DNA of 64,000 bases from an uncultured Nitrososphaerota archaeon. GTDB lineage: Archaea; Thermoproteota; Nitrososphaeria; Nitrososphaerales; Gagatemarchaeaceae. The stretch is from positions 384,001 to 448,000 of the forward strand of contig CAVRAG010000008.1 in the NCBI GenBank assembly GCA_963718895.1. Direction: 5' to 3'. The position numbers were made by a program, and so were the translations under genes. The first letter of the stretch is position 1, and each line of letters opens with the position of its first letter. The notes below the pieces were generated by a model. That model saw only the letters and a list, made by a program, of their open reading frames with translations, had not been told where the DNA came from and searched no databases. This document shows, piece after piece, positions 1,683-50,969 of the stretch.

Positions 1683-1939
1683 GGTTCTGTCAAGTCTTTG
1701 TCGGGTAGCCAAAAAGACTTGGCTTCGAGGCATCGACTCCGGGGATTACCGTCCTCGTCGGGTTCCCCTTCACCGCTTCACCTGCCCCGCCTTGTTTTCA
1801 ATGAACGGTCGAACCTCAACCGCCCATCTTGCCAATGGGTCAGACGGATTAGCTCGGGACCCGTCCTCACTGCTCGGATTCAACATGCTGAGAGCATACT
1901 TAAGCGCCCACCCTTAGCCAACGAAGACTTGACAGAGCC
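1683..1939 (-). mobile_element. 257-bp non-autonomous TIR element (IS6-like ends) containing a tnpB 3' remnant / omega-RNA-like scaffold
   Basis: TIRs GGTTCTGTCAAGTCTTTGTCGG and CCAACGAAGACTTGACAGAGCC; 8-bp direct repeat TGTTTGCG at 1675-1682 and 1940-1947; interior homologous to 48174-48377. Confidence 0.85.
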
Positions 1940-47091: not shown

Positions 47092-48048
47092 TCATGCTTC
47101 CGACCGCTGCCCTGATCTGTGGCCGACGTAGATGCGCCATCTCGACACGCCCGGATCTCGAGGGAAGTTCGCCTTCCTCCACGAGTCTAGCTGGGCCCGT
47201 ACGTCTCTCTGGACTGCAGGATCGAGGACTTGGGACAGCCTGCTCAGTCGCCTGTTCCCTGAAAACACGCCGATGCGCCGCCACGCTTCTCGGGACTCCC
47301 GGGACACTTCGAACTCGAACGGGACATCCTTCACCGCGAACCCGAGGCGACGAAAGAGGGCATGGTAGTCCACTCTTTGTCGGACCCGCCGTAGCGCGAA
47401 GGCGTCTATTGCGTCGGGGGGGACGCCGTGCTCAAGGAGGACCTCTCTCGTTTTGGCGCGGAGAGCCTCTCTCACCTCCTCGTTACCCTCGACCCAAGAA
47501 GGGAGACTGAGCGCGAAGGCTCCGGCCTCGGTCAAGAGCTCGCGCAGTCCGACAAGGACCCTTTCGGGCTCCGGGAAGTGCCAGAAGGCGGAGTTGCAGA
47601 CCGCGAAATCAAAGGTCTGTCCCGCGAGAAGTCCTGATATCTCACGAGCGTCGCCCTGGACGAAGGTGACGTTGTGCGCCCCCGCCACCGACGCGTTCTC
47701 CCTCGCCACCCCCAGCATCCCCCCTGACGAGTCCAGTGCTACGACCTTTCCGGTGCCTGCGAGGTTGGCCAGCTTCAGAGTGCAGGCGCCTGTCCCGCAC
47801 GCGAGCTCAAGCACCCTCGAGCGTTCCTCGATCCTGAGTTGCGCGATCGTGGCATCGGCGACGGTCCCGTAGAAGTGCCAGCGCTTTTCGAAGGTGTCAT
47901 ACTCCTTCGCGCTCTCTCCCCAGGCGTCTTCTCGCGCGCCTTCCAAGGCCGGTGGCCAAGGAATGAGCCCTTTTTTGAATTTCGGGACTTGCCGGACGCT
48001 GAGACCGCGGCTGACGCGTGCGGACAAACTGTTGCCACCCAAGGTCAT
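47092..48048 (-). CDS. Class I SAM-dependent methyltransferase
   Basis: VLELACGTG and FDFAVCNSAFWH; start uncertain. Confidence 0.85.
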   Translation of the reverse strand: MTLGGNSLSARVSRGLSVRQVPKFKKGLIPWPPALEGAREDAWGESAKEYDTFEKRWHFYGTVADATIAQLRIEERSRVLELACGTGACTLKLANLAGTGKVVALDSSGGMLGVARENASVAGAHNVTFVQGDAREISGLLAGQTFDFAVCNSAFWHFPEPERVLVGLRELLTEAGAFALSLPSWVEGNEEVREALRAKTREVLLEHGVPPDAIDAFALRRVRQRVDYHALFRRLGFAVKDVPFEFEVSRESREAWRRIGVFSGNRRLSRLSQVLDPAVQRDVRAQLDSWRKANFPRDPGVSRWRIYVGHRSGQRSEA

Positions 48049-48173
48049 CCTATTCGTAGAAGTAGACGCGTGGACCGGACAGCACCTTGGACAGGGGTTC
48101 GGGGGGACCCAAGTCAGACCGTCATCGTTGAGCTGAGCGCGAAAGCCCGGAGAAGGCTCTGATGACCGCTCTG

Positions 48174-48641
48174 GGTTCTGTCAAGTTGTCGGGTGATGGC
48201 TGACCTTGTTGACCATCGGGTGACGACCCAACTTGCTGGCATCGACTCTGAGGATTAGGGTCCGCGTCCCGTTCCCCTTCACGGCTTCACCTGCCAGCCC
48301 TTTCTCCCTCGCCGCAAGATCTGCTTGTTGCGAGCGACTCTTCGACTCTGGAAGAGAACGGTCGAACCTCAACCGCCGTAGCACGACGGCAGTTCGGATC
48401 CTTTAAGCGCCCCGTAGAATCCCTTCAGCCCCTTCCTGTTGTCGATGCCGTGCTCCTGGGCATGTGCAATTGCGTTGTACGTGAGGATGAGGCATTCACC
48501 GAGAAGGTCCCGCGATCCCTCCCCGCCATGGGACTGCGTTACGCACTTTGTCGCCCGCAATGGCTGAATGTTATCCCATCATACTTAACCACTACCCGAA
48601 TCTTGGCGGACTGTTCCATCACTCAGCAGCTTGGCAGAGTC
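48174..48641 (-). mobile_element. tnpB: 468-bp TIR element (IS6-like ends) with an internally deleted tnpB
   Basis: TIRs GGTTCTGTCAAGTTG and CAGCTTGGCAGAGTC; 8-bp direct repeat CCGCTCTG at 48166-48173 and 48642-48649; N-terminal fragment MRATKCV...LPSCY joined to tail RLRFDRS...AGEAVKGN...LRVDASK. Confidence 0.8.
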
Positions 48642-48683
48642 CCGCTCTGTCAAGCTTATATTCGCCATGGGGTGAATCCGCGC

Positions 48684-49566
48684 ATGAAACCTCTCGGAAG
48701 AGTGACAGCAGTACTACTGCTCGTCGTCCTCGTCATGGGGGGCGTGGTAGGAATTATCTATTTTGACGACCAGCAAGTGATAAGCTCACAGTCGTCGACC
48801 ATAAGCAAACAATCGGTGACGATACAGGGGCAGGTCGCGTCGATCCAGAGCCAGTCGTCCGACGCTGCAGAAGGACGAGTCCTCTCTGACCACCCTCGAA
48901 GCGAACATCACGGCGACGGAGACGGCTCTCGCCCAGGACCAGGCAAGTCTCGCCCAGGCGCAGGCTGAAGCCGCGAACCTGACGACGACCATAGCATCGT
49001 ACAAGACCGAGATAGCCACCATCACGGCGGAGTACTCGCAGGCCAACGGGACCATCGCCTCGCTCAAGGCCGAGGTCGCCCCGCTGCAGGCCCAGGTCGC
49101 TTCCTTGCAGACTCAGCTGAATGGGTTCCAGGTACAGATTACGGGGCTGCAGACGCAGATTGCCGGATACCAGACGCAGATCGCCACTCTCCAGGCTCAG
49201 GTCAAGTCGCTCACCGCCATCGTGGACCTGAGCCAGAGCACGGTACTGCTCAGCCAGCAGTTCGTGGGAGTGCAGTCGATCGGCGACCAGGTCGCCGACA
49301 ATTTCAACGCCACCTACTCCGGGTACGTCGCGGTGTCCATGTCCCAAATCAGCGACATCAGTAACGTCCAGGTCGGCGTGTTGATCTTCTTCGCCTCCTC
49401 GGTCAACTCTGGCCAGTACACTTCCGAACCCATCGGCCCCTACTCATTCACCTCGATTCCTGGCCTGATAGTCTTCCCGGTGACACCCGGGTCGGTCACC
49501 GTCTACCTTTCCAACACGGACAGCACACCTGAGAACGCAACCCTCTCGATCACCTACTACTACTGA
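48684..49566 (+). CDS. Membrane-anchored coiled-coil protein (frameshift near 48865)
   Basis: N-terminal TM helix, Q-rich heptads (LQAQVASLQTQL), C-terminal beta domain. Confidence 0.75.
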
Positions 49567-49744: not shown

Positions 49745-50969
49745 ATGACAAATAGGAACGACAGAGAAATCACGGTCGTGAAGTTCGGAGGGTCGGTCCT
49801 AGAGAACGAGAGATCAATGGAGCAGGCCGCGCAGCTCGTCATCGACACCGCGGAGAAGGGCTTCGGCGTGGTGGTCGTGGTCTCGGCGATGAAGGGCGTC
49901 ACAGACCAGCTCATCGCGCTCGCCAAGAAGGTCAGATCCAAAGATGGAAGCCGCGCTGATGGATGAGCTCCTAGCCTCCGGCGAGAAGACCAGCGCCCGG
50001 CTGATGGCCGGGGCGCTCGCGGGCCACGGCGTAAGGTCGGTGGTAGTCGACCCCGAGACATCCTACTGGCCGATCGTGACCGACTCGAGGCACCTGGACG
50101 CAAACCCCATCATGGAGCTCAGCAGAGAAAAGGCGCAGGAAGTGATCCTCCCCCTCCTGCGGGAGGGCAAGGTGCCCGTTGTCTGCGGCTTCCTAGGGAA
50201 GACGGTGGAAGGCAAGACGACCACGATGGGCAGGGGAGGTTCGGACACGACGGCGGTCATCCTCGGAAGCTGCCTTGATGCCAAGGAGGTCGTCCTGATA
50301 AAGGACGTCGAGGGGGTCTACTCGTCCGACCCCGACAGGGTCAGGAATCCTCACTTCATCGAGTCGCTCAACGGAGAGGAGGCCGAGATGCTCGCGGCCG
50401 GAGGCGCGAAGTTCCTCCACGTGAAAGCGCTCCGCTACCAGGCCAGCGGGCTGAGGCTGAGGGTGACGAGCCTGGACAAGCTGAACGCGGGGACCGTGAT
50501 AAAGGGCGACCTCGCCCCGATAAGCCTCGAGGTCTTCCCGCAGGGAGTGTCGATGATAACGGTGGTGGGTCTCGATGCAAAGAAGCTCGAGTCCGTATCA
50601 CAGCTGACCCGCGCGGTGAGGGAGGACGGGGGGTCCCTGCTCGCGCTCTCTCTCGAGGCCACGTCTGCGATATTCTATGTGGCGGGAGGGAAGAACGTCC
50701 TGGATCAGGTCCACCAGGTGCTCGTCAGCGAGAACATCGGCAAGGCCGTCTCCTCCTTTGACGGCCTCTCGATGATGACGGTGAAGGGGAGCTCGCTCGA
50801 GACGGAGACGGGGATCGTGCAGAGGATCACCCAGCCTCTGGCACGGTCCAACATCAACCTCTTCGGGATAGTGACGATCCGGTCCTCAATCAGGGTCTTC
50901 GTCTCCTCCGACCAGGCCGAGAGGGCCCTCGAGCTCATCCGGGAGGCCATGATGGTGAAGAAACCATGA
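49745..50969 (+). CDS. lysC: Aspartate kinase (frameshift near 49940)
   Basis: KFGGS, VVSAM, GRGGSD, DVEGVY and C-terminal ACT domains. Confidence 0.93.

Follow-up and report, generated by a model that had tools for sequence, protein, structure and literature searches.

What is a 468-bp element that has the ends of a transposon, room for no transposase, and only the two extremities of a tnpB gene? The element, here called d1, lies in a 64,000-nucleotide stretch of DNA from an uncultured Nitrososphaerota archaeon (the window; G000:C8:384001-448000, where G000 is the source metagenome-assembled genome (MAG), 80.5% complete). d1 is a remnant member of a TnpB/omega RNA family on an IS6-type carrier. 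We consider it likely that d1 is a non-autonomous element of a family whose sole cargo, between IS6-type terminal inverted repeats (TIRs), is tnpB with its overlapping omega RNA; that it was inserted in trans; and that it is transcribed into a scaffold with a guide read from the flank, for a TnpB supplied in trans. A preliminary description of the locus had proposed the TIR cassette with tnpB as its cargo and deletions that kept the scaffold; to this we add the suggestions of an IS6-like mobilizing family and of a promoter-proximal target preference.

Anatomy and parentage of d1

d1 occupies 48174..48641, and its sense strand is the minus strand. It is flanked by an 8-bp target-site duplication (TSD), CCGCTCTG, at 48166..48173 on the right-end (RE) side and at 48642..48649 on the left-end (LE) side. 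At a given pair of positions, all eight letters would match by chance with a probability of ~1.5e-5. By manual count, the LE TIR (48616..48641, minus strand; sense GACTCTGCCAAGCTGCTGAGTGATGG) matches the RE TIR (48174..48199, minus strand; reverse complement GGTTCTGTCAAGTTGTCGGGTGATGG) at 11/15 over the first 15 nt and at 19/26 over 26 nt. The arms paired at 70% over 37 nt in an inverted-repeat search, and a strict TIR/TSD caller returned TIR 17/24 and TSD 8/8. The RE tip reads GGTTCTGTCAAG and the LE tip is a degenerate GACTCTGCCAAG; the consensus tip of the family is GGYTCTGTCAAG. The repeats and the element's own duplication are as the preliminary description had them.

Within the element, a TATA-like box, TTAAGTAT (48581..48588, minus strand), lies 20 nt 5' of a TTG codon (48558-48560) and is the predicted promoter, at the place where a promoter-like sequence had been proposed. 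Related boxes occupy the same position in relatives: TTAAGTAT in the family of copy 1 (below), TTAAATGG and TTATATGG in the full-length copies F1 and F2, and further boxes in loci L178, L184, L188, and L192. The distance from the LE tip to the TTG is only 81 nt, too little for a transposase, as had been argued. The TTG opens an N-terminal tnpB stub of 63 codons (48369..48560, minus strand; product MRATKCV...GSELPSCYGG*), closed by a stop that was generated by the deletion junction at 48377..48378 (minus strand). At this junction, ~290 codons are gone (RuvC-I/II, zinc finger, RuvC-III). The kept 3' tail of 204 nt (48174..48377, minus strand) holds the C-terminal 67 tnpB codons, which overlap a covarying RNA scaffold, the putative omega RNA. 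A second open reading frame (ORF; 67 residues, 48181-48384, minus strand) runs through the tail in the tnpB frame to a TGA stop within the RE TIR, which also includes the 3' arm of a terminal hairpin.

Another member of the group, copy 1 (m1; 1683..1939, minus strand; 257 bp), has TIRs, a promoter box, and the scaffold, and is flanked by the TSD TGTTTGCG at 1675-1682 and 1940-1947. Its family (249-257 bp) numbers four copies in G000 (m1-m4), with further copies in genomes G021 and G003; d1 is present once in G000. The 22-mer GGCGGTTGAGGTTCGACCGTTC (reverse complement of 48356-48377) is identical in copy 1 (1803-1824), and the stub frame of d1 ends where this 22-mer starts. Thus, the N-terminal codons are indeed fused to the 3' tail at the point where identity with copy 1 begins. 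Being short, bounded by TIRs and a TSD, without a transposase, and accompanied by related IS6-like insertion sequences (ISs) with matching tips, d1 has the features of a miniature inverted-repeat transposable element (MITE), or non-autonomous TIR element.

The two coding fragments derive from TnpB. In a BLAST search of the genome, the 1.3-kb copy F1 (C7:139437-140747) matched d1 positions 55-196 at 90% and 205-390 at 73%, the alignment being interrupted by a single internal gap of ~850 bp. The products of F1, F2 (C8:545239-546581), and F3 (C7, ~547.7-549.1 kb) have a zinc finger followed by DRD(V/L)NA. A search of G000 with PF07282 (Cas12f1-like TNB) gave four matches: F1, F2, F3, and one fragment, with E = 3.6e-15 for the F1 frame. 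The intact 419-aa TnpB L017 (L017:1450-2709), from a same-genus genome, shares, in alignment A1, 65% identity with the d1 stub over residues 1-62 and 68% with the d1 tail; it matches PF07282 at E = 9.9e-11, and its best NCBIfam match is guided_TnpB. Among the full-length relatives L017, L002, L020, and F1, the E values for PF07282 were about 1e-10 to 9.9e-24. The fragments therefore match both ends of an intact TnpB with a TNB domain, and the earlier call, made by recognition of the terminal sequences, holds. The expectation that profiles would recognize the fragments stood only in part: the two d1 ORFs each matched 0 Pfam families, and the TnpB identity comes through the full-length relatives with PF07282. 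Absent from d1 is the whole nuclease core, that is, GIDRN, the FEE/LED acidic residue, the C4 finger, and DRD. Since this core is fully deleted, d1 is the remnant of a TnpB member and not a functional gene.

The ends of F3 (G000:C7:~547700-549100, L065) differ: its right tip is divergent (...GGAGTTATCAGAAC), its left TIR is not recognizable, and a 12-bp direct repeat, GACTCAGTATCG, stands on either side.

The conserved tail and the deletion endpoints

The omega RNAs of characterized TnpB systems lie at the 3' end of tnpB and run to the element tip. Their position is also treated in the available part of the preprint by Meers et al. (PMC10055086). The tail of d1 carries a conserved structure that overlaps the tnpB 3' end and stops at the element tip, and we read it as a putative omega RNA scaffold.

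The structure was evaluated on 27 tails (d1, m1-m4, F1, F3, and 20 relatives) aligned from the R-G-W/R/L codons to the element tip (alignment A2). Four helices were read from the alignment and then scored, using as controls shuffles and 3' partners slid by 1-3 columns. Standard pairs made up 98.2% of 609 cells, versus 85.6% in the shuffled and 32.5-49.1% in the slid alignments, and 10/23 pairs had changed on both sides. The covariation score was 0.321, versus 0.006-0.045 for the slid partners, and was reached by 0/500 shuffles. RNAalifold recovered S1, S2, and S3 independently, and S2-S4 also appear in the single-sequence minimum-free-energy fold of d1.

All elements of the scaffold remain in d1, on its minus strand, except for the outermost pair of stem S1, which was lost at the junction. 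S1 (48356..48378) has the conserved loop TGAGGTTCG and double-sided changes in 5/7 pairs; in the alignment its V/L/M codons (GTG/TTG/ATG) covary with A/D/V codons (GCC/GAC/GTC). The long-range stem S2 (48235..48298; GCTGGCA at 48292-48298 with TGCCAGC at 48235-48241) encloses S3 (48273-48277 with 48250-48254) and the hairpin S4 (48258-48270). In the F1/d1 lineage, the S2 pairing GAG...TCG became CTG...AGC, such that serine was kept by a codon-family switch from TCG to AGC, compensated by the change from GAG to CTG. The terminal hairpin S5 (48183..48234; AAGTTG...CAACTT), whose 3' arm lies inside the TIR, is kept in nearly all tails even as its sequence varies.

That the structure is instead a cis element of the carrier (a transposase-binding site or DNA hairpin, a terminator, or a tnpB translational signal), kept for transposition and not as a guide scaffold, we regard as highly improbable. 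Such a reading would fit the overlap of S5 with the right TIR. In addition, covariation cannot separate RNA from single-stranded DNA, and both the target-adjacent motif (TAM) and the guide activity are predictions only. However, the same TIRs, 8-bp TSD, and target preference are found in the IS6-like ISs and a glyoxalase cassette described below, neither of which has such a structure, so the structure is not required for this insertion mode. Moreover, it sits exactly at the omega RNA place, from the last 140-205 nt of tnpB to the tip.

In the copy-1 family, a small conserved hairpin, GAGGACGG...CCGTCTGA, is found in the 5' half, between the promoter box and S1 (1840-1869 of the window, minus strand; also in the m-type loci L178-L185, L190, and L193). 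It may be part of the RNA.

The scaffold was spared by recurrent deletions. In d1, the stub resembles F1/L017, and the tail has the 45-nt insert that is typical of them; in the m-type, the tail follows F2/L013, and the 5' part does not resemble tnpB. Distinct tnpB sub-lineages thus gave rise to d1 and to the copy-1 family, and in each the retained tail starts within 1-3 nt of the S1 stem's 5' base, in agreement with the earlier proposal of two independent deletions that kept the scaffold. Used as a query over the genus, the tail matched in 17/23 genomes. From the match tables, 23 tails with no adjoining TnpB match were chosen by eye, 18 of which were evaluable; L186, L187, and L194 (contig ends) and L191 and L200 (orientation not assignable) were left out. 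The S1 region was kept in 17 of the 18, the exception being L189. Eight of the 18 belong to the m-type lineage (G021, G003), and five are 5'-truncated remnants that still cover S1. L190 (311 bp, TSD 8/8) and L193 (ends uncalled) resume at S1. Two further derivatives break farther upstream: in L188 (480 bp), ~36 N-terminal codons are joined to residue 331, 24 codons (72 nt) upstream of S1, and in L192 (427 bp; other TIR variant, AATTCTACTGCG.../...CGCAGTAGAACC), ~69 codons are joined 7 codons (21 nt) upstream of it. At least four independent deletion lineages therefore keep the scaffold: d1, the copy-1 family, L188, and L192.

Several of these results, and some on the carrier given below, weigh against a functional RNA mobilized in trans. 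The count of 17/18 is biased, because the tail itself was the query and eight of the 18 tails are one lineage; it supports retention but does not prove it. Because d1 is a single copy, selection on d1 itself cannot be shown. A stable hairpin alone could draw deletion endpoints. The single-sequence fold of the d1 tail plus flank was no better than shuffles (z = -0.76). An Rfam scan of 47800-49000 at E<=10 matched no family, its only match being a chance one to a togavirus (17 bits vs 40). No RNA sequencing run with the d1 locus was found, while eight DNA runs from four studies contain parts of it. Finally, all three full-length tnpB copies in G000 (F1-F3) and the candidate transposase on contig C1 read as frameshifted.

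These results are what would be expected if d1 were an inert relic, namely, a decaying tnpB pseudogene in a dead cassette, its scaffold intact only through youth, its GC-rich S1 hairpin stalling replication and attracting slippage, and its RNA without function. The single-copy state, the lack of expression support, the fold z-score, the broken outermost pair of S1, and the lack of an intact family TnpB frame in this assembly all fit. Nevertheless, we consider a relic unlikely. The combination of promoter, stub or short leader, and complete scaffold architecture recurs in the at least four independent lineages, and the copy-1 family persists in three genomes with compensatory changes. Moreover, 140-205 nt of tail are kept, although MITEs normally need only their TIRs.

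The frameshifts, too, may be assembly errors. F1 and F2 depart from intact relatives by single-base indels, and ordinary genes of the window are broken in the same way: the aspartokinase gene (49745-50969) is split in two frames, covering PF00696 positions 2-59 and 70-234, and the gene to the right of d1 (48684-49566) is in two frames here and in one 295-aa frame in genome G001. At 48862, a short-read contig and the window disagree in a single letter. The frame breaks in ordinary genes are probably indel errors. Because indels occur in such housekeeping genes, the frameshifts of F1-F3 and of the C1 transposase were counted neither for nor against activity.

An IS6-like carrier and its target sites

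Nine elements of G000 were examined: m1-m4 (249-257 bp), d1, F1, F2, a 688-bp glyoxalase cassette, and a 794-bp IS on C1. The TSD is 8/8 in m1, m4, d1, the glyoxalase cassette, and the IS, 7/8 in m2, 6/8 in F1 and F2, and 1/8 in m3. The C1 IS (G000:C1:30554-31347) has perfect 18-bp TIRs, GGCGCTGTCAAGTTAAGG, and the TSD GTCGCTCA. Its transposase frame scored 29 bits against PF13610 (DDE_Tnp_IS240; cut-off 27), and candidate partners overall scored 29-38 bits. The intact relatives L032 and L035 matched NCBIfam NF033587 (IS6 family transposase) over its full length, with E = 3.5e-26 and 4.5e-30, respectively. Over their first 13 nt, the TIRs of the IS relatives (e.g., GGCTCTGTCAAGTTAAGG in L033) agree with the left end of the cassettes, GGCTCTGTCAAGT; every one of these relatives is flanked by an 8-bp TSD, and the partner ISs measure 667-800 bp. 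Common to cassettes and IS6-like ISs are these 13 TIR nucleotides, the 8-bp TSD, a stop codon within the TIR, and a TT(R) flank. In the available text of a review of the IS6 family (PMC7986276), its members are 700-890 bp long and are characterized by 8-bp direct repeats and by tips with GG and a cTGTt motif. The present family has 8-bp direct repeats and short inverted repeats with GG tips and the cTGTt motif (RE tip of d1 and family consensus).

A search of G000, at its 80.5% completeness, for the Y1 transposase (PF01797) gave 0 matches. Based on the TIRs, the 8-bp TSDs, the IS6-like partner ISs, and this negative search, we interpret the members of the family as IS6-type cassettes that are non-autonomous and would be moved in trans, with the IS6-like enzyme as the candidate mobilizer. 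The proposed ancestor, a TIR cassette with tnpB as its cargo, is upheld in the same way: full-length cassettes with tnpB as their only gene, bounded by the same TIRs and by 8-bp TSDs, occur in G000, in the genus, and in Nitrososphaerota MAGs, and the tips of the IS6-like ISs are nearly identical to theirs.

A different enzyme, either from another DDE family with 8-bp duplications or an IS200/IS605-type TnpA, would explain why a C1-type transposase was not found in 16/22 same-genus genomes, several of which have TIR cassettes. The C1-type transposase was found in 12/41 genomes searched (6/22 of the genus), compared with TnpB relatives in 23/41 (18/22). The IS6 hidden Markov model (HMM) scores, 87-105 bits (92 and 105 for L032 and L035), lie below the curated NCBI cut-off of 125. 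Other IS6-family genes occur in 5/5 HMM-tested genomes, and TIRs matching the cassettes were not found around three of them (G007, G009, G018). Furthermore, C1 is a short contig and the contamination of the MAG is 5.4%, so the C1 IS may come from another cell. On the other side, MAGs often lose repeats, and the cassettes share with the IS6-like ISs the four features listed above. A TnpA of the IS200/IS605 type was rejected on the TIRs (19/26), the TSD (8/8), and the lack of a Y1 match in G000 at its 80.5% completeness; in the available part of a 2026 review, IS200/IS605 and IS607 make neither TIRs nor target duplications (PMC13565253). Overall, a mover outside the IS6-like group appears improbable.

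Three loci, L201-L203 (G009, G018, G007), encode longer IS6-family proteins of 297-308 aa with a Cys-rich N-terminal extension that score above the NCBI IS6 cut-off; one lies 1.2 kb from a tnpB. These proteins were rejected as cassette movers, as no TIRs matching the cassettes were found around them. G038:C1, a complete genome of the same order, has 80 matches to the IS6-like transposase, which suggests a recent burst; the six copies examined (L035, L043, L050, L054, L057, and L060) are all 667 bp with TSD 8/8.

The glyoxalase cassette (G000:C7:118683-119370; L067:84-771) has the same TIRs (GGTTCTGTTAATTCATCGGC...) and an 8/8 TSD, GACAAACC, and carries a glyoxalase/PhnB-like gene (PF06983, 5.1e-07) in place of tnpB. 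Thus, the carrier accepts other cargo.

The IS6-like enzyme, if it is the mover, would have a target preference. Read from LE to RE, 9/9 G000 elements have an A/T-rich, TATA-type octamer 5-10 nt upstream of the left TSD, and in 8/9 a divergent ORF of at least 90 aa, called mechanically, starts 3-77 nt from the left end. For d1, the box is CTTATATT (48655..48662, plus strand), 5 nt from the TSD and 22 nt before the ATG (48684) of a divergent, membrane-protein-like gene. In a set of 22 oriented elements whose TSD is >=7/8, positions -13 to -7 are A or T at frequencies of 0.64-0.82; T occurs at -3 in 14/22 and at -2 in 15/22, and A or G at -1 in 18/22, giving TT(A/G) directly 5' of the TSD. The right flank has no comparable pattern, and the insertions are orientation-specific. 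Because similar flanks are found in the IS6-like copies and the glyoxalase cassette, the preference seems to be a trait of the transposase; that it is directed at promoters is suggested by the TATA-type boxes. The TSD and spacer of d1 (48642-48662), CCGCTCTGTCAAG, are themselves TIR-like, and the orthologous promoter of G001, which has no element (L206:1497-1520), reads GGGGTCTGTCAAGTTTATATT. To judge from these sequences, the enzyme may aim at sites like the inner part of its own TIR.

Both genes that flank d1 are kept in the related genomes G001, G011, and G010, but the ~1150-1230 bp between them (~660-720 bp in G000) show no similarity to d1. In G001 this space holds an extra 415-aa gene, and the promoter of the right-hand gene has no element. 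As the upstream side is unalignable, G001 is an unoccupied ortholog and not a clean empty site. The reads of four runs gave contigs of 151-253 nt at depth 2-4, none of which spans a TIR junction or the deletion junction with 31 nt to either side. These contigs gave no joints and so revealed no empty-site allele, a result that is uninformative on its absence.

The putative guide of d1 is the flank at 48154..48173 (minus strand), CAGAGCGGTCATCAGAGCCT, the 20 nt beyond the right end, whose first 8 nt on the sense strand are the TSD. This 20-nt flank, with the guide candidate CAGAGCGGTCATCAGAGCC, is unique in the genome, its only 0-mismatch match being itself; all others had at least 2 mismatches in 16 nt. 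Guide and flank probes had 0 matches in viral contigs and 0 in metagenome contigs. The search for guide matches in the genome and in viruses, as proposed in the preliminary description, thus yielded the self-match as the only exact one. Uniqueness is what one would expect of a homing guide taken from the flank, which would target the unoccupied allele, but it does not show that the guide is used.

Proposed cycle, related systems, and distribution

In the reading we favor, an IS6-family DDE transposase acting in trans (the candidate at G000:C1:30554-31347 and its relatives) would insert the cassette through a staggered 8-bp cut, choosing a TT(R)-N8 site that lies a few bases away from a TATA box of the host. 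Transcription from the internal promoter would continue and yield an RNA that folds into the scaffold and reads into the flank, so that the guide consists of the TSD and the downstream DNA. A TnpB from a full-length copy elsewhere might then load the d1 RNA and cut unoccupied copies of the site, biasing inheritance toward the insert. These steps are projected from sequence features.

A broader scheme, which we put forward only tentatively and hold to be doubtful as a whole, is a three-layer partnership in Nitrososphaerota. The IS6-type DDE transposase would move elements in trans, the TIR-bounded tnpB/omega RNA cassettes would home by RNA, and the elements with only a promoter and omega RNA (d1 and the copy-1 family) would parasitize both. 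Targeting would be in one orientation, to TT(R)-N8 sites near TATA boxes that resemble the inner TIR, and the T-rich triplet 5' of the duplicated target would double as the TAM for cutting empty alleles in polyploid cells.

TnpB is thought to earn its keep by restoring transposons after scarless excision by Y1 or serine transposases. The tnpB-only elements of IS200/IS605 (the IS1341 group) and the PATEs, which are protein-less omega RNA derivatives of IS200/IS605 needing TnpB in trans (Meers et al., PMC10055086, as far as its available part goes), resemble the present family in their TnpB cargo, in an RNA structure over the 3' end to the tip, and in protein-less copies that keep the RNA. Unlike those elements, which have no TIRs or TSD and depend on a Y1 TnpA, the family here has 26-nt TIRs, 8-bp TSDs, and no Y1 found in the genome. 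By analogy, d1 would be the IS6-carrier counterpart of the omega RNA-only PATEs.

The likeness to the IS6/IS26 family lies in the 8-bp duplication, the GG tips and CTGT motif, and 667-800-bp partner ISs with best matches to IS6 models. In its available text, the IS6 review names no more than two MITEs and a single member with a passenger, and the term TnpB occurs 0 times (PMC7986276). In contrast to those forms, the cassettes here carry tnpB or its remnants and no transposase, and the candidate transposase falls below the curated IS6 cut-off.

The available parts of two sources describe TnpB branches that are associated with DDE transposases and have symmetrical ends, namely IS630 (Altae-Tran et al. 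2023, PMC10691335) and 'ISL2' and IS1031 (the 2026 review, PMC13565253), and RNA-guided nucleases, including the eukaryotic Fanzors, that ride in TIR/TSD transposons (both sources). Such links in prokaryotes are described as rare (PMC13565253, same portion). The present family likewise has an RNA-guided nuclease in a TIR/TSD transposon with symmetrical ends. It differs from the DDE-linked branches, in which the DDE gene lies beside tnpB, in that the candidate transposase is encoded at a separate locus of the genome and that promoter and scaffold are all that remains of many copies. IS6 as a whole word is absent from the PNAS main text, whose supplementary branches DDE-1 to DDE-5 may already include this clade. 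No published link between TnpB and an IS6 carrier was found in literature searches at the abstract level, nor in the available parts of PMC13565253, PMC10691335, PMC7986276, and PMC10055086.

Thus, an archaeal lineage carries tnpB and its RNA in IS6-type TIR cassettes that have no transposase of their own, and repeated deletions have dropped the protein and spared the promoter and scaffold. If the RNA is active, OMEGA modules would be swappable between unrelated transposition chemistries, and guide-RNA-only parasites would also arise on DDE carriers. Engineering would gain compact scaffolds of natural origin, 140-205 nt long and defined at their 5' edges, and the fixed spacing from the TATA box would make promoter-proximal target choice in archaea accessible to testing.

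Among Nitrososphaerota MAGs, tnpB-only elements with TIRs and 8-bp TSDs are widespread. Species-representative genomes were scanned, and the best 80 of 372 confirmed loci were evaluated, all from records titled as Nitrososphaerota/Thaumarchaeota MAGs and a few Bathyarchaeia. An anchored caller found TIRs of >=15/24 in 29 of these 80 loci, a lower bound as uncalled loci were counted as negative. The flanking octamers of the 29 matched at 8/8 in 10 and at 7/8 in 2, and at a control offset 0/29 reached >=7. Over all sequence analyzed, a stricter caller (TIR >=15/24 and TSD >=7/8) returned 35 non-redundant elements, including 9 IS6-like IS copies at 8/8.

One strict-caller candidate, G000:C7:352842-353935 (1094 bp, TIR 15/24, TSD 7/8), has no scaffold core. 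A second end variant (...GCAGTAGAACC / GGTTCTACTGCG...) tracks a TnpB sub-clade comprising L006, L008-L015, L024, L027, L028, L030, L110, and L192. Within it, both TIRs are resolved only in L110 and L192, and L192 alone has a flanking duplication, of 7 nt (GCAAAAA).

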